Source: Candidatus Binatia bacterium
Lineage (GTDB): Bacteria > Desulfobacterota > Binatia > UBA9968 > JAJDTQ01
NCBI GenBank assembly: GCA_963422385.1
Contig: OY729432.1
Location: forward strand, 1,237,666-1,301,665
Direction: 5' to 3'
Length of the DNA stretch: 64,000 bases
Under the pieces are notes generated by a model. That model made no database searches, was not told the DNA's origin, and saw only the letters and a list, made by a program, of their open reading frames with translations. A program made the translations under genes and the position numbers. Of this stretch, positions 11,663 through 31,160 are shown in pieces. Every line of letters begins with the position of its first letter. Position 1 is the stretch's first letter.

Positions 11663-11986
11663 ATGTGGGTCAATCTCTATAACCTGCCCGAACCGCTCCC
11701 GGACGCCGAGGAGTTCACCGACCTGATTCCCGACCGGGGCGTGAAGATCGAACGCATCGTCTCCCACGGCCAGACCTCGCCCGCCGACGAGTGGTACGAC
11801 CAGGACCGCGACGAGTGGGTCGTGCTGGTCCAGGGCGAGGCCGTGCTGGAATACGAGAGCGGCGAGAAGCTGCGGCTCGGCGCCGGCGACCACGTGCTGA
11901 TACCCGCCCACCGCCACCACCGGGTAGACTACACCAGCCGGACGCCGCCATGCATCTGGATCGCCGTGTTCGGGAAGATGGCATAG
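11663..11986 (+). CDS. cupin domain protein
   Basis: 107 aa: ...GVKIERIVSHGQTSPADEWYDQDRDEWVVLVQGEAVLEYESGEKLRLGAGDHVLIPAHRHHRV matches the cupin-2 beta-barrel motifs. Confidence 0.72.
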   Translation: MWVNLYNLPEPLPDAEEFTDLIPDRGVKIERIVSHGQTSPADEWYDQDRDEWVVLVQGEAVLEYESGEKLRLGAGDHVLIPAHRHHRVDYTSRTPPCIWIAVFGKMA

Positions 11987-14379: not shown

Positions 14380-16554
14380 ATGACGCATGATCCGGTGGTG
14401 CAGGACGATCCCGTTATCGCAACGGCGGAAGGAACGCTGCGGTTGCTGGACGGAGTTCGGCCACTCTACATGCTGCCTGCGGATCCGCTGGCGGAGGAAG
14501 TCCTGATCCCGGGCTTCCAGGCGGCGGGGAAGGTTGATTGCATCATGGTTGGGTTCTTCTCAAGCGAGGTGCTGGCCTCGCTTGCCCCCGGCCTCGCGAC
14601 CTACATCGCCGGTTCCGAGAACAGCTTCCGGCTTATCGTAAGCCCCCTGCTACAGACCGAAGACCAGGTGGCCATAGAGGACGGCCTGAAATCGGCGGAA
14701 GTAGTAGCGGACAGGATTCTCGAAGAACTGACCGTCACGGAGGACCTTCTTCAGCGCCATACGCTGAAGTGCCTGTCGTGGCTGCTCCGGGAGCGCAGAA
14801 TCGAAATCAAGGTCGCCCTGATGAAGGATGCTCTCTTTCATCCCAAGGTCTGGCTCTTCGAGAACAGGTCTGATGTCGTCGCGGCGCACGGGTCGAGCAA
14901 CGTAACCATTGCGGGCATTTGGAAGAACATCGAACAGATCGCCATATCCAGGTCGTGGCAGGACCCGAATCAGCGTTATATCACTGGCAAGCTTCGCTAC
15001 GAATTCGGCCGGTTGTGGGAGAACAAGGACGAGAACTGTATCGTCATCGCGATGCCGGAGGCGGTCAGACAGCGCCTGCTGCGGACGTACAGTTCAGAAT
15101 TCCCACCGACCGAAGACGAGCTGCGTGCTCTCTACGGTCGCGCGACAGGCGTATCGGAGGAGCCCGAACCCTACGAGGCCGTTTCAGTACCGGCGACGAG
15201 TTTCGCGATACCAGGCTGGCTGAGTTACAAAGACGGACCATTCGAACACCAGGGAAAAGCGGTCGATGCATGGGACGAGGCCCGGTATCGCGGTGTTCTG
15301 GAAATGGCGACCGGCTCGGGCAAGACGATCACCTCTATGATCGGCGCGTACCGTCTCTGCCAACGACACAAGCCTCTCCTGATCGTCGTCGCCGCGCCTT
15401 ATGTGCCGCTAATCGAACAGTGGTGCGATGAAATCGCGCCGTTCGGCTTGAAGCCGGTCAACCTCACCACGGCCGGGAGCGCCGCGAAACGCGCGAGCGA
15501 GTTGCAAAAACTGAAACGACGGCTGCGCACCGGCCTGTCGGATGTTGAAGCGGTTGTCGTCAGCCACGACACGCTGTGCACTCCGGAGTTCCTTGCCGCC
15601 ATCGAGGCGTTCGACTGCGCACGCCTACTGATCGCGGACGAGGTGCACAACCTCGGGCGGCCATCCTTTATCAACGATCCGCCCGAATTCTTCGAGTACC
15701 GTCTTGGCCTCTCGGCGACGCCGATACGCCAGTATGACGAAGACGGAACGGAAGCGTTGTTTGGGTTCTTCGGACCTGTGGCCTTCCGGTTCACGCTCGA
15801 AGAAGCCATCGGCCAGTGCCTTGTCGAATACGACTACTACGTCCATGCCGTGTACCTCACGAAAAGTGAGATGGACGAATGGTTCGACCTCACGGGAAAA
15901 ATCAAGCAGAACGCGTGGCGCAGTGAGGGCGGAAAGCCGGAAGAATATCTCGCCAAGTTGCTGCGGGACCGGCGCGCTTTGCTGGAGACGGCGTCGGGCA
16001 AGGTTGCCACCCTAGGTACTCTTCTGAAGGAAGAGAACACGGGCAACCTGCGGCACACGCTGGTCTACACGTCGGACAAGGGACCAGATCAGCTCGACAA
16101 CGTGAACCGGCTGCTGCGACACAGGAATATCCTGTTCCACCAGCTCACAGCCAAGGAGACAGCAAGCCGGCATCAGACGAAGCAGATCATCAAATCCTTT
16201 CAGGAGGGTGAAATCCAGATGCTGACCGCAAAGCGTGTGCTAGACGAAGGGGTGAACATCCCGCAGATATGCAAGGCGTTCATCCTCGCGAGCACGACGG
16301 TCGAACGGCAATGGGTGCAGCGGCGCGGGCGACTTCTGCGCAAATGCAGCGCCATTGGCAAGACTCACAGCGTCATCCACGACCTGCTAGCCCTACCACC
16401 GGGCATGGAGGAAGGGCTAGATACCGATGCGCGCGCTCTTGTGCGCTCAGAGCTGCACCGGGCACAGGAATTTGCGAGGCTTGCGAGAAATGCAGGCCGA
16501 CCGGACGGGCCGCTGGTGACAATCGATAGAATGGTTGACGCCGCGTTCCTGTAG
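14380..16554 (+). CDS. PLD-family nuclease / SF2 (DEAH-type, ResIII-like) helicase fusion protein
   Basis: 724 aa. N-terminal HxK...GSSN phospholipase-D-like motif (HPKVWLFENRSDVVAAHGSSNVT). Helicase motifs I (ATGSGKT), II (DEVHNL), III (LSATP), VI (QRRGRLLR). GGGAGGA 4 nt upstream of the ATG. First gene of the operon. Confidence 0.82.
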   Translation: MTHDPVVQDDPVIATAEGTLRLLDGVRPLYMLPADPLAEEVLIPGFQAAGKVDCIMVGFFSSEVLASLAPGLATYIAGSENSFRLIVSPLLQTEDQVAIEDGLKSAEVVADRILEELTVTEDLLQRHTLKCLSWLLRERRIEIKVALMKDALFHPKVWLFENRSDVVAAHGSSNVTIAGIWKNIEQIAISRSWQDPNQRYITGKLRYEFGRLWENKDENCIVIAMPEAVRQRLLRTYSSEFPPTEDELRALYGRATGVSEEPEPYEAVSVPATSFAIPGWLSYKDGPFEHQGKAVDAWDEARYRGVLEMATGSGKTITSMIGAYRLCQRHKPLLIVVAAPYVPLIEQWCDEIAPFGLKPVNLTTAGSAAKRASELQKLKRRLRTGLSDVEAVVVSHDTLCTPEFLAAIEAFDCARLLIADEVHNLGRPSFINDPPEFFEYRLGLSATPIRQYDEDGTEALFGFFGPVAFRFTLEEAIGQCLVEYDYYVHAVYLTKSEMDEWFDLTGKIKQNAWRSEGGKPEEYLAKLLRDRRALLETASGKVATLGTLLKEENTGNLRHTLVYTSDKGPDQLDNVNRLLRHRNILFHQLTAKETASRHQTKQIIKSFQEGEIQMLTAKRVLDEGVNIPQICKAFILASTTVERQWVQRRGRLLRKCSAIGKTHSVIHDLLALPPGMEEGLDTDARALVRSELHRAQEFARLARNAGRPDGPLVTIDRMVDAAFL

Positions 16555-16571
16555 CGGCTGGAGGAAGAGAT

Positions 16572-16817
16572 ATGGCACTAAACGACAAAAAGATAATCTC
16601 GATCATCCTTGAGCAGTACTCGGGAATCGAGAAACGGTGCGAAGGCTACCGGGAACAGATTATCCAAGTGATTTCCGAAATTCTGGAATACGAACGAAGC
16701 CACAGGGTCTCCGCGACGAATATCCAGAAGAAGATCAACGACAAGTGCAACGCCACGGCGCGGTTCCTTGCGACGCAGCGCGGCCAAGACACCGGCACGG
16801 AGGAACTGGACTCATGA
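16572..16817 (+). CDS. small hypothetical protein (81 aa)
   Basis: Natural composition (MALNDKKIISIILEQYSGIEKRCEGYREQIIQVISEILEYERSHRV...). Its stop overlaps the next start (ATGA at 16814-16817), indicating translational coupling. Confidence 0.5.
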   Translation: MALNDKKIISIILEQYSGIEKRCEGYREQIIQVISEILEYERSHRVSATNIQKKINDKCNATARFLATQRGQDTGTEELDS

Positions 16818-18949
16818 AACTTCTCCGCGCCGAATTTCAGAACTTCCGTCTGCTCCGCGACCTTGAGCTTGAATTCTCCAGCGATCCCGACAGGAAGCTG
16901 ACGGTCATCCGCGCGGCGAATGAGTCGGGCAAGACGACGATCCTTCACGGCCTGCAATGGGTGCTCTATGGAGACGGGGCGTTACCTGGTAAAGGCGAGG
17001 GCTTTCGGCTCCATCCTATCGACTGGGATGCCAGCGAAGGCCAGCGCGTCCCGATCACAGCCACGGTGAAGTTCGAGTTGACGAAGTATCGTCGCACTTC
17101 AGGTGAAATGCGCGAAATGCGCCGGCGCTATCGCCTCGTGCGCTCCGCATTCGAGGATGTCGACAGTCAGGTCCATCGTTCCGCCTCGACCGTGAAGCTG
17201 TTTGCGCTGAACGAGACTGGAGCAAGTCCTATCGACGCGCCGGAAGCTCTGGTCAACGAGGAACTGCCGCCGGAGCTGCGGGAAGTCTTTTTCACCGATG
17301 GCGACCGGGCTCTAAGCTTTATTGAGGCGGATATCGCCCTGTCCACAAAACGCGAGCGCGTGCAGCGGGCGATCCGTTCCCTTCTCGGCCTCGGCGTGAT
17401 CGACGACGCAATCAAGCATGTGCGCAAATCGGCGGCGGAAGTGAACAAGAAGGCGAAACAGGTCGGTGGCGGCAGCGAACTGAACGCAATCGCTACGCGC
17501 CTCGAAGAGATGGAAAACAACCGCGAGAAATTAGAGGCCGACCTTGATGACGCGAAACAGCAATTCGGCGCTTTCGACGAGAAGATTGACGAAATCGATC
17601 GCAAGATCGCAGCGGCCCTCCAGAAGGGTGACAAGGAGAAGCTGCGCAAGGACCTCGACCACGCACGGGCCGAAATCAGGCACTTCGACAGCCAACTGGC
17701 GGCAGCGAACAAAGAACACTCGGCACTGTTTCACAGTCGGTCTATTGCAACCGACCTGCTCGCACCTGTGCTCACGGGCGCATTTGACAAGCTGGAAGAG
17801 TTGCACGACCAAGGCAAGATTCCGAACACGACGATCCCAGTGCTGCATGACCGCCTTGAAGCAAAAGTGTGCATTTGTGGCGAAACGCTGGAACCTGGTA
17901 ACCCGGGTGGCGACAAGCGCCGCGCGCGTATCCGAAAGCTGATCGACGACAACCAGCGCGTCGATGAAATCCAGGAAATCATCACAGACCTGTACTACAG
18001 CGCAAAGCCGCTACAGGGCAGCGGCGGATCGAGCGGGTGGCTAGAGGAATACAAGAAAGTGGTCAAGGGTCGCGACGGCATCCAGGCACTACGCGACAAA
18101 GCGGGCCGGAAGTTCCGAGCGCTGGAAATGCAGCTCGACTCGCTTCCCGACACGGACATCCAGGGCCTGCGCGAAACGTGCCGCCAGTACAAGGACAATC
18201 GTGACCGCCACCTGTCGAAAAGGTCGGCCATCGAAACCCAGCTTATGGGGCTGAGGCGCGATCGCGAAGGGATGGAAGCGAAGCGCGACCGCCGGCTGCG
18301 CGAACAGAAAAAGGGCGCGCGTATTCTGGCCGAGCGGGACGTCACGCAGGACGTGATGAAGGTGCTGAAAAGCGCTTATGCGCAAATTACGAACGAGGAA
18401 TTGCAAAAAGTCAGCGATCTGATGAACAGCATATTCCTCGAAATGATCGGTGCGGACCCTGAACAGGGCGCAATCATCCGGCACGCTGAGATCAGCCCGG
18501 AATTCGATATCATTGTCTATGGTCCGCAGGACAGGACACTTAACCCCGACCGGGACCTGAACGGTGCGTCACGGCGGGCGCTGACGCTCGCATTCATTCT
18601 GGCGCTGACGAAGGTCAGCGAGGTCGAAGCGCCGAATGTGATCGATACGCCGCTCGGCATGACGAGCGGCTTTGTGAAACGGTCTATTCTGCGCACGGCC
18701 GTGCGGGAGAGTGCGCAACTGATCCTGTTCCTGACGCACGATGAAATCGCCGGCTGCGAGGAGATCATCGACGAGGCCGCGGGCGTCGTCTTCACGCTGA
18801 CGAACCCGGCGCACTATCCGAAAATGCTCATCAACGATCCGGGGGTCGTCGAGCGCAAGGTGGTCCGCTGCGCCTGCGACCACTTGAACGAATGTGAACT
18901 CTGCCAGCGCCGCTCGGATGCGGAGGTCGAGTTGGGTATAGCGTCATAG
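16814..18949 (+). CDS. SMC/Rad50/DndD-like ABC ATPase with coiled coil, central CxC zinc hook and C-terminal Cys cluster
   Basis: 711 aa from ATG 16814. N-terminal FQNFRLL...IRAANESGKTTILHGLQWVLYG Walker A. About 350 aa of coiled coil with KVCICGE in the middle. C-terminal ABC signature/D-loop region (LTLAFILAL...VIDTPLGM...LFLTHD) and CACDHLNECELC. Confidence 0.82.
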   Translation: MKLLRAEFQNFRLLRDLELEFSSDPDRKLTVIRAANESGKTTILHGLQWVLYGDGALPGKGEGFRLHPIDWDASEGQRVPITATVKFELTKYRRTSGEMREMRRRYRLVRSAFEDVDSQVHRSASTVKLFALNETGASPIDAPEALVNEELPPELREVFFTDGDRALSFIEADIALSTKRERVQRAIRSLLGLGVIDDAIKHVRKSAAEVNKKAKQVGGGSELNAIATRLEEMENNREKLEADLDDAKQQFGAFDEKIDEIDRKIAAALQKGDKEKLRKDLDHARAEIRHFDSQLAAANKEHSALFHSRSIATDLLAPVLTGAFDKLEELHDQGKIPNTTIPVLHDRLEAKVCICGETLEPGNPGGDKRRARIRKLIDDNQRVDEIQEIITDLYYSAKPLQGSGGSSGWLEEYKKVVKGRDGIQALRDKAGRKFRALEMQLDSLPDTDIQGLRETCRQYKDNRDRHLSKRSAIETQLMGLRRDREGMEAKRDRRLREQKKGARILAERDVTQDVMKVLKSAYAQITNEELQKVSDLMNSIFLEMIGADPEQGAIIRHAEISPEFDIIVYGPQDRTLNPDRDLNGASRRALTLAFILALTKVSEVEAPNVIDTPLGMTSGFVKRSILRTAVRESAQLILFLTHDEIAGCEEIIDEAAGVVFTLTNPAHYPKMLINDPGVVERKVVRCACDHLNECELCQRRSDAEVELGIAS

Positions 18950-18955
18950 GAGGCG

Positions 18956-19420
18956 ATGATGACGGATCGATATTTCAATCCGTTCCAGGCAATCGATATC
19001 AACGTGCCAGTCGAATTCCATGAGGCGTTCATACGGTACTGCCAGCGAAGCGCCAACGCGGTGATCGACCAGAGCCCGTTTCCGCGCATGGTCGATCTCT
19101 GGTTCCTGTCCGTATGCGTCGCGAGTCGGCTCGGGCTTGATCCCGCCGACATCGCGAAATTCGATACGCGCAAGATCATTGATGGGTCGATATTTGGCAG
19201 CGATCCATGGCGTGTTCACACGATCATGCTCATTGCGATTGGCACATTGGGCGATGTGCAGGTCGTCTCCGAACCCCGCAAAATGATGACGCTGGCTAAC
19301 GGCCTTGCCGTGGCCGGCCTTCCAAAAGTCATCGAAATGCTCAAGGACGGCGATGCGGAACCGATCTGGAACCTGTCGGACGCTGTTGACGCTCTCTTGC
19401 GCAAAGAGAGGACAGCGTAG
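18956..19420 (+). CDS. hypothetical protein (154 aa) coupled to the SMC-like ATPase
   Basis: ATG 7 bp after the ATPase stop, with GGAGG spanning that stop. Natural composition; no motif recognised. Confidence 0.55.
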   Translation: MMTDRYFNPFQAIDINVPVEFHEAFIRYCQRSANAVIDQSPFPRMVDLWFLSVCVASRLGLDPADIAKFDTRKIIDGSIFGSDPWRVHTIMLIAIGTLGDVQVVSEPRKMMTLANGLAVAGLPKVIEMLKDGDAEPIWNLSDAVDALLRKERTA

Positions 19421-19534
19421 GAGCCGGTGCATGTCGATATCGGTTTGTGGGAATGCCTGGCGAAAAGCCGAATTTGGTGGCAGCAGTTGGGCGGGCGTAA
19501 TTGGGAAGCCGCATAACAAACGGAGATAAACGGC

Positions 19535-21907
19535 TTGTTCAAGATTTGTGCCCGCACAGTTCTGGAGCTAGGCGCTGAACTTATCAGTTCCGATGTCATC
19601 GCGTTCTATGAACTGATCAAGAATGCATTCGATGCCGAGTCCCCGACGGGAGCCGAGATTCGTTTCGAGATCACCCTGAGACGGAACGATTACCTGAAAT
19701 TCCGCCATCGGGCGGTCGAAGGACTTGCAGATATAGAGCATCTGAAATCCGACATCGAGAAATCACTCGACCAGTCGGCGCCGAAGGACTCACTGAACCG
19801 TTTCCGCAACGCGATACAGGGTGCGGATAATCTGGAAGAGCTTGTTGGAGTTCTGGACGCGGCGCACGCTTCGGAGAACAGGATTATCGTGTCCGACGAG
19901 GGCACGGGGATGTCGCGACAGGATTTGATAGACAACTATCTCGTTATCGGCACGGCATCGCGCAAGCGCGCGATCAACGCGGCCCTTGCGGGACACCACG
20001 CGGGAGACCGGCGCGCCCCGTTCCTCGGCGAGAAAGGCATCGGTCGGCTGTCGGCGATGCGACTCGGCGACCGGCTGATGGTCGAAACGGCCGAGCGTCG
20101 CGACAAGCGGCTAAACCTGCTCAGGATCGACTGGTCGGTTTTCGAAGACCTCGACGCGATGCTGGACGAGATCCATGTCGCGCCCGAGCATGGCACGTCC
20201 AAGCCGGATGGGAACTGGAGCGGCACGAAGCTGATTATGACCGCGCTCACTGCGGACTGGACGCATGATCGCGTCAAGCATCTTGGCGAGCATGATATTG
20301 CGCGGCTGACCGACCCGTTTGCCGATGTGAAACGGCGTCCACGTATCGCGATCTTCTGGAACGGCACACGCATCCCGGTTGCTCATATGAATCGAAACCT
20401 GCTGTCGCACGCCCATGCGTCCGTCAAGGGCCGGTTCATATACAGAGAATCAGGACCGATGTTACAGTGCACTTTCGAGGCGCTCGATCTTGGGTTTGAG
20501 CATCCGCACGAAGTGGAGAAGAGAGAATTTGTGCGGGCCGACCTCGAGGGCTCGATCATCGGTACCTCCAGCGAAGTTCCGTTGTCCGCACTTGATGGTC
20601 TTGGACCGTTCGAGTTCGAGGTCTACTGGTTTAACCGGCAGCGCCTCGGTCGCATCGACAGCATCGGCGACCGAAAGATTGTCCGTGACCTGCAAAGGAG
20701 GTGGTCAGGAATCCTGCTGTTCCGCGACGGGTTTCGCGTACTTCCCTATGGGGAAGATGATGACGACTGGCTTGCTCTGGACCGGCGCGCTCTGGCCAGC
20801 ACCGGATATCTCTTGAACAAGACACAGTTCGTCGGACGAGCCACAATCTCCCGTCTTGGCAATCCGTTGCTGATTGACCAGACAAACCGTGAAGGCTTGC
20901 GGGTTTGCTCCGAACAGCAAGCGTTCGTCAGCTTGTTGCAGCTCGCTATCCAGTCTCAGCTTCGCGATTTCATCCGGGAAGTCGAGCGCCGTCACAAGAA
21001 CCAACCTCTTGACATGACCGAGGCAAAGACCGGTGTGTCGAACCTCGAAAAGAGAGCGAAGGCCGCCCTCCGCCAGATCAGGAAAATTGCACCACAGTCC
21101 TCCGAGACGATCGAGGAATTGCAGCACACCTTCTTCGAGATCAAGGAGTTCTTCGACCGGGCGCAGCGCCGAATCGACGAAGTGGAGAGCGAGAACCGAC
21201 AGATGGTGCAGATGGCGGGCGTGGGTCTCTTGGTCGAAGTTGTAGCGCATGAACTTGCGCGATCGACCGAGAATGCGCTGGCGGCTCTTGAGGCTCTGCG
21301 CGGCAGGGACCTACCGGAACAGATCGGCGGCCTGCTCAACGCCCTCAGATCGGAGATGACATCGGTCAGTAAACGCGTCCGCGTGCTCGACCCGCTGAGC
21401 GTATCAGGACGACAACGCAAGGAAAGCTTCGATTTCGGCGCGTTGATTGAGGACATACTGAGCGGGCACGAGCTTCAGTTCGAACGTCATGACGTAAAAC
21501 TCAAGGCCAGCTTGCCTGACAACACCGTCCGCATCCGCGCGGTGAAGGGCATGCTCGTGCAGATTTTCGAAAACCTCTTGTCCAACTCGCTATACTGGCT
21601 CGACCTCCGTAAACAGCATGAGCCAAACTTTCGGCCGCGGATTGCCATTGCGATGGAAGACGACCCTCTCACGATCATCTATGAGGACAATGGCCGCGGA
21701 ATTGCACAAGAGAATCGTGAAAGCGTCTTTCGTGCCTTCTTCTCTCTGAAGGAGAAGTCGAAGCGCCGGGGGCTTGGCTTGTATATCGCGCGCGAATGCG
21801 CAGAATATCATGGTGGCAGCTTGACGCTGGACAATCACGTCAATCGCCAGACGGGACGCCTTCACCGTTTTGTGCTGCGACTGCCGGACGAGGTTATGGT
21901 CTCGTGA
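19535..21907 (+). CDS. dual GHKL ATPase: N-terminal MORC/MutL-like domain plus C-terminal histidine-kinase-like (H-box plus HATPase_c) module
   Basis: 790 aa. N-terminal N-box ELIKNAFDA, G1 DEGTGM, G2 GEKGIGRLS. C-terminal VAHELARSTEN (H-box-like), N-box ENLLSNSLYW, G1 EDNGRGI, G2 GLGLYIAREC. A 115-bp gap upstream suggests a possible internal promoter. Confidence 0.78.
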   Translation: MFKICARTVLELGAELISSDVIAFYELIKNAFDAESPTGAEIRFEITLRRNDYLKFRHRAVEGLADIEHLKSDIEKSLDQSAPKDSLNRFRNAIQGADNLEELVGVLDAAHASENRIIVSDEGTGMSRQDLIDNYLVIGTASRKRAINAALAGHHAGDRRAPFLGEKGIGRLSAMRLGDRLMVETAERRDKRLNLLRIDWSVFEDLDAMLDEIHVAPEHGTSKPDGNWSGTKLIMTALTADWTHDRVKHLGEHDIARLTDPFADVKRRPRIAIFWNGTRIPVAHMNRNLLSHAHASVKGRFIYRESGPMLQCTFEALDLGFEHPHEVEKREFVRADLEGSIIGTSSEVPLSALDGLGPFEFEVYWFNRQRLGRIDSIGDRKIVRDLQRRWSGILLFRDGFRVLPYGEDDDDWLALDRRALASTGYLLNKTQFVGRATISRLGNPLLIDQTNREGLRVCSEQQAFVSLLQLAIQSQLRDFIREVERRHKNQPLDMTEAKTGVSNLEKRAKAALRQIRKIAPQSSETIEELQHTFFEIKEFFDRAQRRIDEVESENRQMVQMAGVGLLVEVVAHELARSTENALAALEALRGRDLPEQIGGLLNALRSEMTSVSKRVRVLDPLSVSGRQRKESFDFGALIEDILSGHELQFERHDVKLKASLPDNTVRIRAVKGMLVQIFENLLSNSLYWLDLRKQHEPNFRPRIAIAMEDDPLTIIYEDNGRGIAQENRESVFRAFFSLKEKSKRRGLGLYIARECAEYHGGSLTLDNHVNRQTGRLHRFVLRLPDEVMVS

Positions 21908-23814
21908 CGGAGCTGAAGGATCTTCTCGCAGCACGGGGAATCACACGCGCCCTCGTCATAGACGACGTGTTTGACTCCCTTCCACGTCCCGAGGAACTCA
22001 ATGACGGTGATTGGTCGAATTTCTTCGATGACCTCGGCGATGCCGGAAACGAACTGCTCAAGGAATTGTATAAAGGATATGAAGAAGCATCAGCCGAAGA
22101 GCTGAAGGCATCTCAGGATTTTATCACGGTAGTTTGGGAAAACCGTACGAAACTGCCGAACGCGGCCTGCGATCACCTGTTCCACGACTATGAGGAGACG
22201 AAGACTACGGAACGCGCGGGCCTCGATGTGCTCGTCGGCGCACTGGGAGCGCTGGGGCTGGCCTGCACAACGATGGGGCGCGAACTTAACGAGGGAGCGA
22301 AGCAAGCAGAGCTGATCTTTGTCGACTTGTTCTTGGGTTTCCATCAGTCCGAAGACGATATGGAACGAGCAGTCAGACGTGTCGGTGAACTGGTCGAAGG
22401 GCGTGTTCAGAACCCGCCGCTCGTCGTCCTCATGTCACGTAGTCCCCGGCTTCAGGAAAAACGAAACGAGTTTCGGGACACGGCGGGACTCTTAGGGTCC
22501 ACGTTTCGCGTCGTCAGCAAAGCTGACCTCGCCAGGGAAGGAACGCTGGAGACCCTGTTGACGCGGCTGGCGAATCACTACGAGGACGCAAAACGTGTTG
22601 CTGGCTTTGTCCATGCGTGGGACAGCGGCCTCGACCAGGCACGGCGGAATTTTGTCCGCATACTGCGCCGTCTGGATCTATCGGACCTTGCACAGGTGCG
22701 GGCGCTGCTGCTCGACTTCGAGGGGCAGCGCCTCGGTGAGTATCTTCTCGACGTTGCCGACCGGGTTTTGCAGCATGAGATAGAAGATGACGACAATACG
22801 ATTGCGGCGGCTCTGAAGCTGAACAAAATCGATTTGAGAAAATACCCAGCCCCGCATCTGGCCGGTTCTCCGGATTTGCAGGAACTCGTGCACCGCATGG
22901 TGTTTGTGCACCCTGATCGCCTGCGTCTTTCGGCGAACGAAAACAAGGTGCAATTGCAGTTTGGCGACGTGCTGCGTTGGAAGGCTGATGAGGGCGATGG
23001 CTACGGTGGTGCTGTTTCGCTGGTCGTGAGTCCGGCATGTGATCTTGTGCGCGACGGCGCCGAGCGCGTCATGCTGCTTTCGGGTACGCTCGAAGAGCTT
23101 CAGCCCAAGAATTGGTCTTACAGGGCCGGCCCGATCAGAACAGCCATTGTGATACTACCCGACGAGGGGCGGAAGTGGATCAGGTGGAACCTCAAGAATG
23201 TCAGAAGCCTGGAGTGGAACAAGCTGGACAAGTTGATCGGAGAGGACGTCAGTCTAAAGCGCATTGGCCGGCTCCGGGAAATCTACGCAATCGAAATCCA
23301 GCAAATGCTCCTGACGAACCTAGGCCGAATCGGCCAGCCCGCGAACCTGCCGGTCCCATTCCCGGTTGCCATTTCGTTGTTCTACGTAGGAATCGATTGC
23401 AAGGCGCGTAGACTTGCTGTCAACCATATCGACTCCGCTGCCTGCTACGTCGGGCGCGGCGAAAGGCCGCAACCGGTACACCGGCTGGTCCTGTCGGAGC
23501 AAACTTGCGATCACATAGAGCAGGCTTTGCAGGCGTTGGGCCAGGATGCCGTTCGGCAATCCGCCCAAGCCAGCCTTGCAGCCGTAAAGGCGGACCGCGA
23601 CTTCTTCACCAAGTTCGAGCGAGGCGAGATCGAGATGCCCACCGACGCAGGCACGAAGGTCATCAAGGCGGACAACAATAGGGTCTATGCCGCGATCATT
23701 CGAGGCGGAAAATTCGACGAAGGAAGTGATATCGTAGGCGAACCCCGGAAAGCGGCTTTGATCGTCAAAGTGACGGATATCGCCGGCCATGACGGGGACC
23801 AAAACGGTCCCTGA
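21904..23814 (+). CDS. hypothetical protein (636 aa), last gene of the operon; possibly a receiver-like N-terminus
   Basis: GTG start overlapping the preceding stop (GTGA). N-terminal ...RALVIDDVFD... and later ...LIFVDLFLG...PPLVVLMSRS... resemble a degenerate receiver domain (inference only). The remainder is unassigned. Confidence 0.6.
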   Translation: MTELKDLLAARGITRALVIDDVFDSLPRPEELNDGDWSNFFDDLGDAGNELLKELYKGYEEASAEELKASQDFITVVWENRTKLPNAACDHLFHDYEETKTTERAGLDVLVGALGALGLACTTMGRELNEGAKQAELIFVDLFLGFHQSEDDMERAVRRVGELVEGRVQNPPLVVLMSRSPRLQEKRNEFRDTAGLLGSTFRVVSKADLAREGTLETLLTRLANHYEDAKRVAGFVHAWDSGLDQARRNFVRILRRLDLSDLAQVRALLLDFEGQRLGEYLLDVADRVLQHEIEDDDNTIAAALKLNKIDLRKYPAPHLAGSPDLQELVHRMVFVHPDRLRLSANENKVQLQFGDVLRWKADEGDGYGGAVSLVVSPACDLVRDGAERVMLLSGTLEELQPKNWSYRAGPIRTAIVILPDEGRKWIRWNLKNVRSLEWNKLDKLIGEDVSLKRIGRLREIYAIEIQQMLLTNLGRIGQPANLPVPFPVAISLFYVGIDCKARRLAVNHIDSAACYVGRGERPQPVHRLVLSEQTCDHIEQALQALGQDAVRQSAQASLAAVKADRDFFTKFERGEIEMPTDAGTKVIKADNNRVYAAIIRGGKFDEGSDIVGEPRKAALIVKVTDIAGHDGDQNGP

Positions 23815-23817: not shown

Positions 23818-24657
23818 CTACTTGTGGCAGGCAAGACAAACCTTTGCCTGCCCGTACAGGTCGTCAATGTCCAGCGGCTCGATATCCGGCCTTAAGGGGT
23901 TGGTCTGTACCTTCGAGCGCATCCGTGCAAGCCGTTGTTCATGATCCTGCCTGATCTGTTCGACGCGATCCGGCCGTTCCAGATCTTCAAGCGACTCCCC
24001 CTGACTCCAGGTAAAAGGCGAGCCGTGCTCGACGGCGTTCTTCTCGTATGCCTTGGCCTCTTCGAACGCCTCAGGGTGCTGCTCTTTGAGCCGTACCCAT
24101 TCAATCTTTTGCTGGAAGAAGCAGAAGGTGCAGCCGCTACGCGTGCGCCAGGAATAGTATTTGGGTAGACCGAGCCCAGCCCCATCGAGAATCTCAAGGA
24201 CCCCTGCCTTGTCGATCCCCGCCTGCTTGAACGGCAAGTTGATGACCAGGTTGTCGTGCTTGGAAGAATAGCCTTCGCGGTATTCCTCATCGCTGCGGAT
24301 CGCGACGTAACTATGGACCGTCGTCCCATCGACCAGCAGCGGGCGAAGCCAGTGCTCGAACGGACGGAGTTTTAGCTGCCGCGTGCACCAGCGCGTCTGT
24401 GGCGAAGGAAGGAAATCATTGTATTGCTTGAGCCAGAAGTCGAAGTCGCGGTCCGGGTTCAGTTTGCGTATCGGTTGACCGAGAAATCCCTCCAGCAGCC
24501 CGAGATATTCGTAAACCTCGGGCAGTTCCTTGCCCGTATCCGTAAAAAAGTATTCGATTTCGAGTTCGGGGTGACGCTGTCGCATGTAAACGGCGAGCGC
24601 CGCGCTGTCGCGCCCGCCGGATAGGCCAAGTACGTGTTTCACAGGACCGGTCGTCAA
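23818..24657 (-). CDS. sspD: SspD/DndC-like PAPS-reductase-family ATP pyrophosphatase (phosphorothioation)
   Basis: 279 aa with PP-loop LSGGRDS and conserved Cys cluster (CTFC...). TTG start overlaps the sspC stop. Small size fits SspD rather than the roughly 500-aa DndC. Confidence 0.8.
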   Translation of the reverse strand: MTTGPVKHVLGLSGGRDSAALAVYMRQRHPELEIEYFFTDTGKELPEVYEYLGLLEGFLGQPIRKLNPDRDFDFWLKQYNDFLPSPQTRWCTRQLKLRPFEHWLRPLLVDGTTVHSYVAIRSDEEYREGYSSKHDNLVINLPFKQAGIDKAGVLEILDGAGLGLPKYYSWRTRSGCTFCFFQQKIEWVRLKEQHPEAFEEAKAYEKNAVEHGSPFTWSQGESLEDLERPDRVEQIRQDHEQRLARMRSKVQTNPLRPDIEPLDIDDLYGQAKVCLACHK

Positions 24658-27600
24658 GAAGCGGCCTTTTCTTTCCCATTTTTTTGTGCAGGCGGATAAT
24701 TTTGCATGTAGCGCGTGCTGAGTTCCGCCAGCGCCGCCAGAATGATGCTCCGGCGGCTAGTGTCGGCGGCCTCCAACGAGGCGGCAACACGCTCGATGAG
24801 ATCATTGACGGCAACACGGTCGGCGTCGGCGATGTCGAATTCCTCGAGCAGCGGCACCGGCCGGCCGTCCATACCGATGATGACGGCCATGGCCTGTCGC
24901 TTGTCGGGGCGGCCCTGAACGCGCGCATACGTCTCGGCCCGGAGGAATTTCTGCGCCATGTCGGCAAGCTCGATTGCCGCATGGTCTATATCGGGATCGA
25001 CCCATTCACGCGGCGACTTGTTCGCGGCAAGACTCGCGATCCCTTCGAAACTCTCGTCCGAACCGTCGAACTGCGCCAGTCGGCCGACGAAGGCGTCGAG
25101 CCGGAAATCTCCGGCAAGCCGCCTGATATTCTCGGCGCGCTTGCGCAATTCCACCAGGGACTGCGGAGAGACGTTAGGAACCTGCATCTCCTCCAGCATG
25201 ATATCGCGCAGGCGGTGAAGCATCGACGGATAGGCCATTACCAGTTCTTCCAGGCCTTCGCGGACGCTTACGACGACACGGCGCAAACCGTCTTCGTCTT
25301 CATTGGCAAGCGAAACGTCTTCGCCAAGCGTTTCCGGTATGTCGTCGAACAGGAACCGGTTGGGATCGTGCGCCCGTTTGAACAGATCGCGAATTTTTAC
25401 AGCATTGGATGACAGCCGCATCGTCAGCCCGGTCCATTTGGGAAGCCGGTCGTAGATCCCGACAAGGCCGCGCCCGACATCGATGGGCTCCAGGTGAACA
25501 AGCTCGTTCGCGTCGTCGAGATCGCGGACTACCTGCGCCATACCCGACAACAAGCGGCGTGCAACATCGGTCAGATCCATCCAGCGCAACTGGATGAAGG
25601 TCGGGTCCTTGGCAAGATACTCCACGTCCACGTCGTCGAACTTGGTCCTAAATATGCCATTCCGGTAGACCGCCAGTTTTTTGTGCTGGGACAGAACGAA
25701 TGCTACGGCAAGGATCGGCATGAGACCGTCCTTCACGCCAAAGGGCATCTCGCGCCATAGTTCGAACAGCTCGGATACCGCGACGGTGCGCGAGGAGCGT
25801 TCCTTCACATGGTCGAGCGCGGCAGTCCACAGCGGGGCCAGGTGGCAAGGATCTGCACCATTCGTCGGGGCAACGAATCGCCACCCCTTGCCTTCCCGGG
25901 CATAGAGCCCAGTCGCTTCCAGGACGGATTCGAACAGCCCACCCTCGGCCGGGTACCCTTGGATACCAAGGCGAGCTTCGCCCTCGTTCAGGACCATGCG
26001 GCGCAACAGGGCGTTCTGTGCCGCGATGGCATTGCTTGACGGTTTCTGCCGACTCAGCAATTCGTTATGCAGCCGCGGCGACTTCGCGAAGCGGCGGTCT
26101 GCTAGCTCGGAGGCGATGCCGTTCAGATCGGCCTGCCGCAGGCGTTTGGGCAGGTAGTTTTTCCGGAACCACAGCGCATTGTCGAATGCCTTGTGCAGTT
26201 CGGTTTCAAGCAGGGCCTGCAAGGCCGCAAGGCGAGCGGAGACTTCCCGCCGCGCAACGAAATCGCCCGCGAGTTCCGGATGATCATTGCTGACACTATC
26301 GAGCGCAAACAGCTCCCGCGCTAGGGGCACAACTACCCATGACTTTTTCGAAATCCCGACGACGACGTCCCATGCATCGCTATACCGCGCGGCTTTGCGG
26401 CACAGGTCCTCGGCACAGGCCTCGCTCTCTCCCTCGGTCGGAATCGCCAGCAGGAATTGTCCTATAGCGCCGTTCTCCGGCCCAAGCCTCGTGGCGAATT
26501 CGACGAGGCCACTGATCGGCACGACGTATACGTCGAACCATCTCAGCGCGCCGGTGTCATGATAGTGGCGCTTGGCGAGGATCGGCTGAAGTCCCGCGAC
26601 GGATTTCAACTCGGTGAAATCCACCTCGTCAATCTCGTCGAGCGCGGCCCGCACCGCTCTATCAATATCGAAATCGCTCCCTGCGAAGATGGCGCGTGCG
26701 TCGAGGAATTTCTTGAAGATCGTGAACGACCATGTGTCCAGTTGCGAGAGCACTTTTTCAAGCGCCTTGTCCGATGTACCGTGGAAACAGGTGCGCAGCA
26801 GGTCAAAATTTGCCACGAGGCCCGAGCGTTCCTTGAACAGGTCAATGACGGCGATTGTCTTGAGTAACCCGACATGAAGGGAGTCGCCGCCAATGGATTC
26901 GCATCGTTCGATCGCTTCCGCTGCCAAGGCCCACCGATGTCCGTCCGGCGAAGCGAGGATGGACGGTTCCAGGTTGGCGCGAAGATAGTCCCAAAGCCGG
27001 TCGGGGCCGTACAGTTCGCCGTCCCCGTCATGGTTCAGATAGTCCTGAAATCCGTGCGGTTCGGAGGAATTCAGGAAACCGAATATGCTGCGCTGATTTT
27101 GCCCGAATCGCCGCCGCGATATCGGTCCAAGCAAACAAGCGACAACGGGATGCAGTGGCCAGCATGCTTCCAGCATTGCGGCGAGCCGTGCAACGTCACC
27201 AGCGCGTTCCCGACGTGCGAAACCGGCGACGGCGGACGCGAGCGGGCCGGGCTTCTTTGGACGATAATCACTCTCGATGGCGCGTGAGATCAGGTCGATT
27301 TGCTCTTCAACCGCAGTGTTGACAACGAGGTCGATGAAACGCCCCTGAACTTTCGCCCACTCGTCGCGCATTTCGTGCGAGAGGCGATGGGCGTATTCCT
27401 CGAACGCTTGGTGCAACACGCCGATGACAAGAAAACGCCCCTTGCTTCGCGACGCGGCTTCAGCAAGCTGCTGGAGGATGTAGATGTCGGAGCCGTCCCG
27501 CGCGGCGGCCTCCAGAAACTTGCCCATCTCGTCGATGACCAGGACTAGCCCGCCGTGCGTCTTCGGCCTGGATGCAGCCGCCTCGGTCAGGGTGTCGATC

Positions 27601-28049
27601 AGATTGCTTTCAGTCCAGCCGTCGCGTGGCTGCCGTGCCACGAGTCCTGTTCGCTTCACAGCCTCGCCGATGACCGCGACGGGGTCGTCGCGACGCGCGA
27701 CGACGGGAAGGATGCGCCATCCCTTCGTGCCTGTCGGTAACGCGGTCCAGATCGTTTTCGCCAGATTCTGTCCGAAGACCCCGGCGGCCTCCTTCTGCAA
27801 ACCGGCCTTGCCCCTCAGCAAGGCGCTCAGGGCCACGACGAGGCTCGATTTGCCGCTGCCGTAGGGACCTGTCCATGTGAATGCGCCTTGGCCCGTTTCG
27901 GAGACGTGGCGCGCCATCGTTGCCAGAACATCGGCGGATGACTGCGGACAAATGAATCCTTCAAGGGCGGCGGCGTCACCGAGATCGGCATCAATGCGGA
28001 TCGATCTGAGAAAACGGCGGGCGATCCAGACACGTTCGTTGAGCACCAT
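24654..28049 (-). CDS. sspC: SspC-like large P-loop ATPase (DUF499/BrxC-like)
   Basis: 1131 aa with N-terminal Walker A TGPYGSGKSSL and Walker B LVLVIDEMGKF. ATG 28049 is preceded by GAGGAGG and overlaps the sspB stop (ATGA). Confidence 0.75.
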   Translation of the reverse strand: MVLNERVWIARRFLRSIRIDADLGDAAALEGFICPQSSADVLATMARHVSETGQGAFTWTGPYGSGKSSLVVALSALLRGKAGLQKEAAGVFGQNLAKTIWTALPTGTKGWRILPVVARRDDPVAVIGEAVKRTGLVARQPRDGWTESNLIDTLTEAAASRPKTHGGLVLVIDEMGKFLEAAARDGSDIYILQQLAEAASRSKGRFLVIGVLHQAFEEYAHRLSHEMRDEWAKVQGRFIDLVVNTAVEEQIDLISRAIESDYRPKKPGPLASAVAGFARRERAGDVARLAAMLEACWPLHPVVACLLGPISRRRFGQNQRSIFGFLNSSEPHGFQDYLNHDGDGELYGPDRLWDYLRANLEPSILASPDGHRWALAAEAIERCESIGGDSLHVGLLKTIAVIDLFKERSGLVANFDLLRTCFHGTSDKALEKVLSQLDTWSFTIFKKFLDARAIFAGSDFDIDRAVRAALDEIDEVDFTELKSVAGLQPILAKRHYHDTGALRWFDVYVVPISGLVEFATRLGPENGAIGQFLLAIPTEGESEACAEDLCRKAARYSDAWDVVVGISKKSWVVVPLARELFALDSVSNDHPELAGDFVARREVSARLAALQALLETELHKAFDNALWFRKNYLPKRLRQADLNGIASELADRRFAKSPRLHNELLSRQKPSSNAIAAQNALLRRMVLNEGEARLGIQGYPAEGGLFESVLEATGLYAREGKGWRFVAPTNGADPCHLAPLWTAALDHVKERSSRTVAVSELFELWREMPFGVKDGLMPILAVAFVLSQHKKLAVYRNGIFRTKFDDVDVEYLAKDPTFIQLRWMDLTDVARRLLSGMAQVVRDLDDANELVHLEPIDVGRGLVGIYDRLPKWTGLTMRLSSNAVKIRDLFKRAHDPNRFLFDDIPETLGEDVSLANEDEDGLRRVVVSVREGLEELVMAYPSMLHRLRDIMLEEMQVPNVSPQSLVELRKRAENIRRLAGDFRLDAFVGRLAQFDGSDESFEGIASLAANKSPREWVDPDIDHAAIELADMAQKFLRAETYARVQGRPDKRQAMAVIIGMDGRPVPLLEEFDIADADRVAVNDLIERVAASLEAADTSRRSIILAALAELSTRYMQNYPPAQKNGKEKAAS

Positions 28050-29005: not shown

Positions 29006-29159
29006 GCTCCCCTCGGTCACTGGATGATGCCTCCAGTTCGACTGTAGCCGACGAGTCATGCTATGGTCAACAGATACTTGGATGGTGCACCTAGAAGCAC
29101 ACGGTCGCCGGAACCCCGGCAATCAACAAGCCTTTGTGGTTCTAACTCATTGAAGCACA

Positions 29160-31070: not shown

Positions 31071-31160
31071 GGCGACTCCTAATACGTATATTACGCGAAT
31101 AGTACACGTATGTACCGTCATGACCGAAGAGACGCAATACGGCCGGCCTCTGTCACTGAA

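Follow-up and report, generated by a model that had tools for sequence, protein, structure and literature searches.

A probable PbeABCD cassette linked to an SspABCD PT module in a Candidatus Binatia bacterium

Described Pbe systems and the organization of the locus

The PbeABCD cassette of Haloterrigena/Natrinema jeotgali A29, which is partnered by dndCDEA, was described in the order helicase, PbeB (66 aa), ATPase, and PbeD (152 aa) (Xiong et al. 2019, PMC6459918). In this archaeal Dnd-linked homologue all four pbe genes were needed, protection depended on phosphorothioate (PT), and viral DNA replication stopped with no visible degradation (PMC6459918). A re-annotation names the four products an HKD-SF2 protein, a small protein, a CxC ABC ATPase, and a cognate of DndE, and counts the cassette among the CxC ABC-ATPase systems (Krishnan et al. 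2020; Rakesh et al. 2024, PMC10853773). PbeABCD also goes by the name of "CxC ABC-ATPase + DndE" system, directed against invaders. Its action is disputed, restriction without cleavage (PMC6459918) being set against cleavage of invader or self DNA (PMC10853773). The partners described for CxC systems are Dnd PT genes, cytosine methylases, and MTaX1, and Ssp is not mentioned among them (PMC10853773). The SspABCD module carries out modification by itself, having an ATPase (SspC) and a DNA-binding subunit (SspB) of its own (PMC10853773); 83.9% of sspBCD sets lack SspE or SspFGH, and other partners have been predicted (PMC8092258).

In a window of 64,000 nucleotides (the whole stretch of DNA analyzed) from a Candidatus Binatia bacterium, the region at 16572–19420 very probably encodes PbeB, PbeC, and PbeD of a PbeABCD cassette genomically coupled to an SspABCD PT module. 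The gene identities, their order and coupling, the conservation of motifs, the predicted folds, and the linkage to Ssp were established here, while the mechanism proposed below is inferred. The cassette itself is already known; what sets it apart from the characterized archaeal system is an Ssp partner in place of Dnd and a conserved cysteine tail of PbeC.

Three co-oriented ORFs were confirmed on the + strand of this region, namely a pbeB-like gene (16572..16817, 81 aa), pbeC (16814..18949, 711 aa), and pbeD (18956..19420, 153/154 aa). The mechanical ORF call began pbeC at GTG 16637, while its true start is ATG 16814, which has GGAGGA ahead of it and overlaps the stop of the 81-aa gene as ATGA. 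Of 78 related loci, 56 share this –4 overlap, and the pbeB-like gene has its own Shine–Dalgarno sequence, GGAGGAAGAG, upstream. The start of pbeD, preceded by a TAGGAGG Shine–Dalgarno sequence, lies 6 nt (ATG 18956) or 9 nt (ATG 18959) past the pbeC stop, and ATG 18959 was favored because the database homologues are of 153 aa. The original prediction had described both small proteins as translationally coupled to the ATPase; this holds for pbeB and pbeC, but pbeD is closely spaced and does not overlap.

Directly upstream on the + strand lies pbeA (14380..16554, 724 aa), which joins an HKD (PLD-family) nuclease domain to an SF2 DEAD/DEAH helicase. Its product matched the PADLOC PbeA model at 3.1e-191 and TIGR04095 (dnd_restrict_1) at 9.5e-108, the latter below the cut-off, and the Pfam domains ResIII, DEAD, Helicase_C, and PLDc_2 were found in it. 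Both motif sets are in place: the HKD motif HPKVWLFENRSDVVAAHGSSN at residue 154, with the pattern HxK(x)4E...GSSN, and the helicase motifs GSGKT at 312 and DEVH at 420. PbeA was found at 75 of the 80 related loci; it probably acts as the effector/translocase, and would be the motor of the cassette as well. This gene, which lies outside the coordinates of the original prediction, had been passed over there, as had the adjoining complete SspABCD module.

Taken together, the genes form a four-gene cassette of an SF2 helicase with an HKD domain, a small protein, a coiled-coil ABC ATPase, and a protein of ~150 aa. The order PbeA-PbeB-PbeC-PbeD was conserved in 75–80 of 80 related genome loci, and pairwise identities correlated with those of PbeC for PbeD (rho 0.90), PbeB (0.86), and PbeA (0.78), the observed values being reached in 0 of 300 permutations. 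Gene order and sizes are the same as in the jeotgali cassette, including a 50–80-aa protein, a coiled-coil ATPase of ~650–710 aa with a CIC hook, and a protein of ~150 aa, and the Pbe layout of two archaeal plasmid loci (L082 and L084, the latter a canonical dndCDEA-pbeABCD locus) also agrees with that found here. In contrast, the partner in jeotgali is dndCDEA and here sspABCD, PbeC shares just ~22% identity with the copies on archaeal plasmids, which lack its cysteine tail, and PbeA has an intact HKD domain, while the copy on the Natrinema plasmid (L082) measures just 469 aa. The CxC ATPase, the small protein, and the HKD+SF2 protein are likewise common to this locus and the CxC ABC-ATPase systems.

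Linkage between the Ssp module and the cassette

Beyond the cassette, PADLOC identified the full set of SspA, SspB, SspC, and SspD. On the – strand lie sspD (23818..24657), encoding a PAPS-reductase-like ATP pyrophosphatase (PADLOC SspD, 1.5e-136), sspC (24654..28052), encoding the P-loop ATPase of the modification module (PADLOC SspC, E = 0, 1332.8 bits), and sspB (28049..29122; PADLOC SspB, 7.3e-107). The cysteine desulfurase gene sspA (29160..30347, + strand; PADLOC SspA 1.4e-123, DndA 1.7e-120) is divergent from sspBCD. Thus the neighboring module is sspDCB/sspA and no dndCDEA set is adjacent. Unlike in DndABCDE, neither DndC nor DndB is encoded next to the cassette; DndC models matched the SspD protein at only 1.8e-4. 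The locus resembles SspABCD-SspE and SspABCD-SspFGH in that the same modification module stands beside a candidate restriction arm, but the candidate arm here is PbeABCD, possibly with a pair of GHKL-type genes. SspE, DndFGH, and SspFGH gave no match among the 14 island ORFs scanned against PADLOC, and no description of Ssp-Pbe coupling was found in the literature that could be searched.

The slot between pbeD and sspD holds two genes on the + strand. The first (19535..21907) encodes a double GHKL ATPase of 790 aa, with HATPase_c_3 at residues 111–204 and HATPase_c at 673–785 (Pfam) and a match below the cut-off to the NCBIfam BbrUII/HgiDII restriction enzyme (4.9e-15); its membership of the system is uncertain. 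The second (21904..23814) encodes a 636-aa partner, for which no Pfam, PADLOC, or NCBIfam match was found; it starts with a GTG that overlaps the stop of the 790-aa gene as GTGA. Elsewhere the partner is a gene of 632–636 aa with a 4-nt overlap with the 790-aa gene, and among the genome and metagenome loci compared it always co-occurred with it. Among the 80 related genome loci, 16 carried the 790-aa gene, and so did all 8 metagenome loci that a search with the 636-aa partner retrieved. The contents of this slot vary, including SspE, the GHKL pair, DUF262 with a kinase, DUF262 with SIR2, DndB-like proteins, or nothing at all. SspE, the established Ssp effector, occupied it in nine related loci (PADLOC E 0 to 7.6e-207 in the three tested).

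How closely the two modules belong together can be judged from the related loci. At 66 of the 80 loci an sspD gene lay no more than 10 kb from pbeC; ssp was followed by co-directional pbe in 26 loci, and in plasmid CP099618 the order is sspA-B-C-D-pbeA-B-C-D, where the sspD and pbeA genes share 4 nt. Ssp was lacking within 10 kb of pbeC in the other 14, including Chloroflexota loci on complete chromosomes, and the pairwise identities of Ssp and PbeC correlated with a rho of only 0.33–0.46. In two loci (L035 and L041) the pbeD-sspD slot was empty, so that Ssp has no candidate partner there other than Pbe. According to the reading that we prefer, SspABCD would put the PT mark on host DNA, and DNA without the mark would be recognized by the cassette and either blocked in replication or cut.

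On the other hand, Pbe may be an independent neighbor, since its linkage to Ssp is loose in three respects: the weak correlation, the 14 loci without Ssp, and the SspE genes in nine. PbeABCD would then be an autonomous defense or abortive-infection system that shares an island with SspABCD and does not read the PT mark, and the true PT-dependent effector would be the occupant of the slot, which is SspE elsewhere and here the GHKL ATPase with its partner. The variable cargo of the slot agrees with this scenario, as does one locus (L088) that has the GHKL pair and Ssp but no Pbe; it has also been argued that CxC systems exist apart from PT genes as well and that suicide may be their mode of action (PMC10853773). 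Nevertheless, so frequent an adjacency, seen in many phyla and in two arrangements, is hardly explained by island clustering alone, and the operon-level fusions, the loci with an empty slot, and the experimentally PT-dependent archaeal homologue (PMC6459918) all argue against it. We therefore consider an autonomous cassette unlikely, though of the alternatives it survives best.

The small proteins PbeB and PbeD

The PbeB-like gene was found in 78 of 80 related loci with 36–84% identity, and its 364 homologues are all unnamed or annotated as "hypothetical." Its median dN/dS was 0.12, and its mean pairwise identity was 0.56, compared with 0.62 for PbeC. The protein had no Pfam or PADLOC match; the weak NCBIfam matches, below the cut-off, were to stalk subunits of ATP synthase (E 0.007 and 0.07), and its sequence has the periodicity of an amphipathic helix. 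In size and position it fits the small protein of CxC-ATPase systems. However, that protein was published as rapidly evolving and mostly disordered (PMC10853773), whereas PbeB is conserved within its clade. PbeB may be a small helical protein, translationally coupled to and co-evolving with PbeC, that works in stoichiometric amounts as a regulator or adaptor.

PbeD had 1098 homologues, the best 120 of which were 81–100% identical, and the median dN/dS of its gene was 0.07. The AlphaFold model (pLDDT 96.7) contains a strand at residues 13–17 with helices at 18–27 and 44–57, a strand at 70–75 with a helix at 76–97, and further helices at 106–129 and 135–152. These make up two strand-helix-helix units with a 12-residue linker (58–69), a long core helix, and a C-terminal helix of 18 residues. 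DndE proteins of clade 2, which are linked to CxC ATPases, are described with two such units, a linker of 10–20 residues, an extended core helix, and at the C-terminus a helix of ~19 residues or more (PMC10853773), and the model of PbeD has this fold, which has been published for TraY as well. The top Foldseek match in the PDB, a weak one, was 9f0y_G, a chain of the F-plasmid relaxosome (target-normalized TM-score 0.54, E 1.6); it is probably TraY, which that entry contains.

At the level of sequence, no likeness to DndE could be demonstrated. No member of the PbeD family (0 of 82) matched Pfam DndE, and PbeD gave no match to NCBIfam DndE (TIGR03184), against which Halorubrum DndE scored 7e-23. 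A profile search of the PDB returned nothing relevant and no DndE, hhalign gave a probability of 0.2% against canonical DndE, and solved DndE structures were not among the entries that Foldseek returned for the model. The suggestion that the downstream protein is DndE-like agrees with the predicted fold and with the literature, in which PbeD is assigned as a cognate of DndE (PMC10853773), but not with sequence comparison: PbeD appears, from its model, to be a DndE-like tandem ribbon-helix-helix (RHH) protein, and the likely counterpart of the obligate DndE-type tandem-RHH partner of CxC systems (PMC10853773). The other suggestion, a kleisin or LmuC-like partner, found no support, because the model lacks a winged-helix kleisin-like architecture. 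PbeD may be a monomeric pseudo-dimer of two RHH units whose C-terminal helices would dock on PbeC while the two-stranded sheet enters the major groove, and a PbeC2-PbeD2 clamp could then search along DNA for a target motif and sense whether it bears PT.

The same pair might instead be considered a target-scanning pair of the DndD-DndE type that serves modification, for example, by recruiting or directing the sulfur-insertion enzymes of Ssp. PbeC matched DndD models (PADLOC 2.6e-28; NCBIfam TIGR03185 2e-26), DndD/CxC ATPases with DndE have been regarded as a generic DNA-scanning core that recruits different modification enzymes (PMC10853773), and Ssp has no DndE of its own. But the TIGR03185 score, 92.7 bits, is far below the cut-off of 245.85, SspABCD is self-sufficient, with SspC and SspB of its own (PMC10853773), and PbeCD is accompanied in 75 of 80 loci by the HKD-helicase PbeA, which is typical of a restriction arm. 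Moreover, PT persisted in each single pbe deletion strain of the archaeal system (PMC6459918). A role in modification is therefore quite improbable.

The ATPase PbeC and its cysteine motifs

PbeC, with more than 1600 homologues in the database, is a coiled-coil ABC ATPase of the Rad50/SMC superfamily related to DndD, as had been proposed from the DNA alone. It matched the PADLOC PbeC model at 4.9e-51 and Pfam AAA_23 at 9e-16, and the PADLOC matches listed (25) were every one PbeC or DndD. The best Foldseek match in the PDB was Rad50 (7.5e-17), and JetC, LmuB, Rad50, and SMC heads were matched at 1e-7 to 1e-17; sequence comparison with the PDB gave one weak match (E 0.003). With DndD-DndE of DndABCDE the pair shares a sister-clade coiled-coil ABC ATPase, a Walker B of the D-T-P type, and a small tandem-RHH binder, but DndD has no CxC hook (PMC10853773) and PbeC has one. 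An assignment of PbeC as DndD itself was rejected on account of this hook, the score below the TIGR03185 cut-off, and the absence of an adjacent dndC.

The head motifs were located as Walker A AANESGKT (residues 34–41), a signature-like LNGAS (582–586), Walker B NVID-T (608–612), and an H-loop TH (641–642). On inspection of the motifs, no catalytic Glu followed Walker B, where D611 is followed by T612, and no D-loop Asp was evident in GMTSG, contrary to the D-loop of the original prediction. Lacking this Glu and an obvious D-loop Asp, PbeC may turn over ATP slowly or in an unusual way.

The AlphaFold model of PbeC (pLDDT 72) has an N-terminal head lobe (1–170), helices at 176–332, a turn at 333–363, helices at 364–545, and a C-terminal head lobe (557–663). 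The motif KVCICGE (351–357) falls in this turn, so that C353 and C355 lie between ~157 and ~182 helical residues, at the apex of the predicted coiled coil, where a cysteine hook had been expected. The codons of C353-I354-C355 (17870..17878, + strand) encode this putative zinc hook. The coiled-coil insert of CxC ATPases is ~400 residues long with the CxC at its apex, and here it comprises ~340–370 residues. Both cysteines were invariant in alignments A1, A3, and A6, the motif C[IVF]CG was present in 77 of 80 related loci, and a CxC motif also occurs in Dnd-linked archaeal PbeC. PbeC might dimerize at two points in the manner of Rad50: the ABC heads would sandwich ATP, and one Zn ion would be shared by two CxC motifs, each at the end of an antiparallel coiled coil of ~170 residues.

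With Rad50 (Mre11-Rad50) and SbcC, PbeC shares the split ABC head, the antiparallel coiled coil, and the apical cysteine zinc hook, but its hook is CxC instead of CxxC, its arms are much shorter, and it is associated with an HKD-helicase as nuclease. An SMC system of the Lamassu/Wadjet or SbcCD/Rad50 type, with the 154-aa protein as a kleisin-like or nuclease-adaptor subunit, is very improbable, because the structural matches and the weak NCBIfam matches to Rad50, SMC, and SbcC reflect a common ABC head and coiled coil, whereas the listed PADLOC matches point to PbeC or DndD, the apex is neither an SMC hinge nor a Rad50 CxxC, the neighbors are PbeA, PbeB, and a tandem strand-helix-helix PbeD, and no Mre11/SbcD, LmuA, JetA, JetB, or JetD gene is adjacent. 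PbeC was accordingly rejected as Rad50/SbcC, to which its likeness goes no further than the fold and the one weak PDB sequence match, and as LmuB or JetC, and the kinship to Lamassu and Wadjet that had been suggested extends to the superfamily and no closer.

Past the head lies a second cysteine cluster, at residues 686–697 (CACDHLNECELC; 18869..18904, + strand), with the pattern CxC[D/N]Hx3-4CxxC; it had first been read as CxxC...CxxC and is in fact CxC...CxxC plus a His. In an alignment of PbeC spanning 42–85% identity, C353, C355, C686, C688, C694, and C697 were invariant and H690 was conserved in at least 90%. The cluster had rightly been called atypical: it was not found in the Dnd-linked archaeal PbeC of Natrinema and Halorubrum, it falls past the end of all matches to the PADLOC PbeC model and of all matches to plasmid PbeC without Ssp linkage, and it is not described for CxC systems (PMC10853773). 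The confidence of AlphaFold was low over it. The clade-specific cluster is putatively a second zinc site; this CxC..H..CxxC tail could form a small zinc module of the Ssp-associated clade and may offer an interaction surface. It was retained in 79 of 80 related PbeC loci and was also present in an Ssp-linked Sphingomonadaceae plasmid PbeC of 41% identity.

The PbeABCD cassette in the window

Based on the gene identities and on the published cassette, the genes at 16572-19420 (+) are those of PbeB, PbeC and PbeD of a known, PADLOC-recognised kind of system, and the gene of PbeA lies just outside the interval covered by the original prediction. PADLOC assigned the 724-aa product of 14380-16554 (+) to PbeA (3.1e-191) and the 711-aa ATPase to PbeC (4.9e-51), the remaining listed matches of the ATPase being to PbeC or DndD models. 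The cassette pbeABCD was defined beside dndCDEA in a haloarchaeon, with a PbeB of 66 aa and a PbeD of 152 aa; protection of about 10^4-fold against virus SNJ1 needed all four genes and depended on phosphorothioate (PT) modification, and viral DNA replication was blocked with no visible degradation (Xiong et al. 2019, PMC6459918). Subsequently, PbeA was re-annotated as an HKD nuclease with an SF2 helicase, PbeB as a small protein, PbeC as a "CxC" zinc-hook ABC ATPase in a sister clade of DndD, and PbeD as a DndE cognate with two ribbon-helix-helix (RHH) repeats and the topology of F-plasmid TraY (Rakesh et al. 2024, PMC10853773). The four-gene requirement, the PT dependence and the replication arrest are known from a distant homologue only, and they are carried over to the window by analogy.

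Six consecutive genes occupy the + strand from 14380 to 23814. After pbeA come the 81-aa pbeB-like gene (16572-16817), pbeC (ATG at 16814, to 18949), pbeD (153 or 154 aa, from 18956 or 18959 to 19420), a 790-aa double-GHKL gene (19535-21907) and a 636-aa gene (21904-23814, probable start GTG). Translational coupling is seen at pbeC, which is preceded by GGAGGA and whose start overlaps the stop of the 81-aa gene as ATGA; TAGGAGG lies upstream of pbeD. A mechanical ORF call placed the ATPase start at GTG 16637, and this was rejected because the added stretch would run out of frame across the conserved 81-aa gene and because the homologues begin with MKLLRAEF. On the - strand follow sspD (23818-24657, PADLOC 1.5e-136), sspC (24654-28052, E = 0) and sspB (28049-29122, 7.3e-107), from which sspA (29160-30347, 1.4e-123) is divergent.

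In PbeA, Pfam found PLDc_2, ResIII, DEAD and Helicase_C; the HKD motif is intact (HPKVWLFE...HGSSN, residue 154), and both helicase motifs I and II are present. In some loci the PbeA orthologues are only about 455-485 aa long, as in Chloroflexota loci (such as L064:8232-9683), a Natrinema plasmid (L082:6342-7751) and a Lactiplantibacillus plasmid (L083:6475-7842). Pfam found only helicase domains in the L064 copy, the PLD/HKD being absent, so that the nuclease module of the cassette is facultative.

The ATPase and its two small partners

The ATPase matched AAA_23 in Pfam, and its nearest NCBIfam family was DndD, far under the cut-off (92.7 vs 245.85 bits). A Rad50- or DndD-like protein with a coiled coil and a hook had been proposed, and both elements appear in the AlphaFold model (pLDDT 72, from a shallow alignment of 19 sequences at 58-88% identity): the N-terminal head lobe is followed by helices 176-332, the CIC hook sits in a turn at 333-363, and helices 364-545 lead to a C-terminal head lobe at 557-663. 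The predicted fold is Rad50-like, since Foldseek against the PDB gave Rad50 as the best match (7.5e-17), then SMC heads, JetC, Smc5/6 and LmuB. The expected D-loop was not borne out, no clear D-loop Asp being seen, and Walker B is VID-T and lacks the catalytic Glu. Residues 611-620 (18644-18673) carry DTPLGMTSG, in which Asp611 is followed by Thr; throughout the clade D611-G615 and G619 do not vary, whereas the archaeal Natrinema PbeC (MDSPFGALD) keeps the D-loop Asp. The missing catalytic Glu might, speculatively, point to a slow, switch-like ATPase.

The C-terminal cysteine cluster was also found, with a spacing of CxC-DH-x3-CxxC in place of the CxxC...CxxC first described. The hook cysteines C353 and C355, together with C648, C686, C688, C694 and C697, were invariant both in 18 close homologues and in 37 homologues at 42-85% identity, and H690 was conserved at 90% or more in the same alignments. 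Among the 80 genome loci with PbeC relatives, the motif CxC[D/N/T]Hx3-4CxxC occurred in 79, the exception (L021) having a disrupted 3' end; it was also present in a plasmid copy of PbeC that is Ssp-linked and only 41% identical. The tail was absent from the Natrinema and Halorubrum PbeC, both with a CIC hook; no PADLOC PbeC model match went past query residue 654, and none of the 14 plasmid matches without Ssp linkage extended past residue 696. Judged from this distribution in sequences, the tail is a clade-specific addition to PbeC. A neighbouring Ssp module is not a strict companion of the tail, which persists in Chloroflexota loci that have no Ssp within 10 kb; the Chloroflexota loci L064-L068 thereby hint against the idea that the tail couples PbeC to Ssp. 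In the AlphaFold model the tail was poorly modelled and not confident.

The 81-aa ORF is a real gene by its sequence conservation: 364 homologues of constant length were found, the median dN/dS was 0.12, and it was present in 78 of the 80 loci. Its mean pairwise identity was 0.56 vs 0.62 for PbeC, and in this clade PbeB is not "rapidly evolving", unlike the published small protein of CxC systems. The sequence has an amphipathic-helix periodicity, and its alignment to the small proteins of the archaea and of Lactiplantibacillus is very poor (15-29% identity). No Pfam or PADLOC family matched it, and NCBIfam gave only weak, below-cut-off matches to ATP-synthase stalk subunits. The Halorubrum PbeB (L084:7731-7922) bears the RefSeq name "CxC ATPase DNA modification system associated small protein"; in the NCBIfam release searched, with E up to 10, no family was found for it, and no such family for the 81-aa protein of the window.

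The 154-aa protein had been suggested to be DndE-like, and this held for its predicted fold (tandem strand-helix-helix) and not for sequence matches. A total of 1098 homologues were found, the best 120 of which were 81-100% identical and came from many phyla, and 228 relatives emerged when representatives at 50% identity were searched exhaustively. PbeD (153 aa) matched no Pfam, PADLOC or NCBIfam family; phmmer and a profile of 82 diverse relatives recovered no DndE among PDB sequences, and none of the 82 members matched Pfam DndE. The hhalign probability was 0.2% against a canonical Halorubrum DndE (TIGR03184 score 7e-23) and only 8% against the archaeal Halorubrum PbeD. Sequence-level membership of DndE is therefore not demonstrated, but methods that miss even the archaeal PbeD have too little power for this fold to count strongly against membership when they find nothing. 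The AlphaFold model (pLDDT 96.7) has a strand at 13-17, helices at 18-27 and 44-57, a 12-residue linker, a strand at 70-75, helices at 76-97, a long helix at 106-129 and a C-terminal helix at 135-152. Only two strands are present, so they must pair with each other, and the model, a predicted tandem RHH, matches the published description of clade-2 (CxC-linked) DndE (PMC10853773). The top Foldseek match in the PDB was weak (E 1.6, target-normalised TM-score 0.54), namely chain G of 9f0y, an F-plasmid relaxosome; the entry holds TraY as three chains, and chain G is probably TraY. A Lamassu or Wadjet identity of the locus and a kleisin/LmuC-like partner were rejected on the neighbour content and the predicted fold of the partner.

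Linkage to Ssp modules and the slot between pbeD and sspD

The 80 loci, with PbeC relatives at 51-85% identity, came from a scan that took one genome per species, and almost all lie in metagenome-assembled genomes (MAGs). They span Alpha-, Beta- and Gammaproteobacteria, Binatia, Acidobacteriota, Bacillota, Latescibacterota, Poribacteria, Chloroflexota, Rhodothermales, Verrucomicrobiota, Nitrospirales, Planctomycetota and others. By tblastn with the window proteins, PbeC was found in all 80 loci, PbeB and PbeD in 78 each, PbeA in 75, SspD in 66, SspC in 64, SspB in 55 and SspA in 36, many of the misses being at contig ends. The genomic linkage to Ssp is thus strong. The arrangement was convergent as in the window (pbe into sspDCB) in 34 loci and co-directional (ssp, then pbe) in 26, and on the Sphingomonadaceae plasmid CP099618 sspA-B-C-D-pbeA-B-C-D form one eight-gene operon, in which sspD and pbeA overlap by 4 nt. 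Pairwise identities of PbeC correlated with those of PbeD (rho 0.90), PbeB (0.86) and PbeA (0.78), and only at 0.33-0.46 with those of the Ssp genes; in every case 0 of 300 permutations reached the observed value. These results indicate that PbeBCD, with PbeA, is one co-evolving unit, and that Ssp is a linked but exchangeable module.

According to the record titles of the loci, PbeC is 75-87% identical across MAGs of very different phyla (Rhodospira, Binatia, Burkholderiales, Bacillota, Thermodesulfobacteriota, Rhodothermales, Latescibacterota and Bryobacterales), and many of the more distant copies are in Poribacteria, Latescibacterota and Chloroflexota MAGs. Such identity across phyla suggests that pbeC has moved widely and recently by horizontal transfer, perhaps among organisms of the same habitats.

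In convergent loci, the slot between pbeD and sspD varied in content. It held SspE in 9 loci (PADLOC E 0 to 7.6e-207 for three tested), and in 16 of the 80 genome loci a double-GHKL ATPase of 790 aa and its partner of about 633 aa; a query with the partner retrieved 8 metagenome loci, all with the pair in the slot. Other loci had DUF262 proteins there (an NsnA-like one with a Ser/Thr kinase, or one with SIR2), a DndB-like protein of 420 aa accompanied by a small protein, or a MORC-like ATPase of about 665 aa (examples, among L003-L062, are L009:5700-8039, L003:7243-9406, L043:12605-14523, L005:6414-8197 and L038:12690-14696). In the window, the 790-aa protein combines an N-terminal MORC/BbrUII-like GHKL domain with a C-terminal histidine-kinase-type HATPase_c domain, and its 636-aa partner has no family match and a receiver-like N-terminus (RALVIDDVFD). 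Genes named "histidine kinase" adjoin SspE in 211 Acinetobacter strains (PMC7464106). These two proteins could be an effector or sensor pair, so far uncharacterised, that is associated with Ssp. The slot genes, rather than Pbe, could be the PT-dependent effectors; this is supported by a locus (L088) that has the GHKL pair and Ssp but no Pbe, whose place is taken by another helicase/MzaB-like/PLD set. However, the slot is empty in two loci (L035 and L041), and this, like the operon fusions, argues that Pbe itself is the partner of Ssp.

SspE and SspFGH are the described partners of Ssp, and 83.9% of sspBCD loci have neither (PMC8092258), and the partners listed for CxC systems are Dnd genes, cytosine methylases and MTaX1 (PMC10853773). 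In the searchable literature, a scope that the 2020 CxC paper falls outside, no paper with "pbe" and "SspABCD" or "sspBCD" describes the pairing. The CxC clade was reportedly first described by Krishnan et al. in 2020. We tentatively hypothesized, giving it somewhat less than an even chance, that SspABCD-PbeABCD is a distinct, undescribed PT defence combination, in which PbeBCD and PbeA would be the restriction arm for single-strand-type Ssp PT, the PbeC tail and the conserved PbeB would be adaptations coupling the scanner to Ssp-type marks or proteins, and the cassette would have spread by recent horizontal transfer (PbeC 75-87% identical, more than 10 phylum-level groups). In the mechanism proposed for the locus, whether or not the combination is distinct, PT written by Ssp would be the self mark and PbeD would read sequence and mark through its beta-sheet; two PbeC subunits would close into a dimer at their ATP heads and, at the CxC hooks, through a Zn that they share, with the tail as a second Zn module for interaction; PbeB would be a stoichiometric regulator and PbeA the translocase-nuclease effector.

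PbeABCD is among the least understood PT-linked defence systems, one group reporting replication arrest without DNA damage and another predicting nuclease action or suicide. If the linkage is functional, Pbe extends from double-strand Dnd marks to Ssp marks, which would help to explain why most sspBCD loci have no recognised restriction partner (PMC8092258), and the combination would supply part of the "missing" partners of the roughly 84% without SspE or SspFGH. If it is only positional, the locus is another homology-annotated copy of PbeABCD in a defence island. The bacterial clade, highly conserved and very widespread with more than 1000 homologues, suits structural and genetic work: its HKD nuclease is intact, its tandem-RHH partner is modelled with confidence, its small subunit is conserved, and it has an additional zinc-type tail.

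The surrounding low-GC block

The GC content was 0.575-0.609 at about 12-32 kb and about 0.63-0.68 in the flanks, and ordinary metabolic genes, a cupin (11663-11986) and MsrA (32680-33480), border the block. The composition and the border genes give the whole block the look of an inserted island of defence genes. No tRNA was found in the window; in the promoter and terminator scan, promoter-like sites were at chance level, and no terminator-like site was found in the gap between pbeD and the GHKL gene. At the left edge, the gene at 12412-13116 (-) encodes a 234-aa product with a weak PADLOC match to PDC-S05 (2.5e-10), and that at 13447-13998 (-) a 183-aa product with no match; both are possible additional defence genes. 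Downstream of sspA, inside the block, two ORFs on the + strand (30356-30727, 123 aa; 31110-32018, 302 aa) had no Pfam or PADLOC match, and a copy of the 302-aa ORF, 69% identical, also follows sspA in another of the 80 loci (L012).
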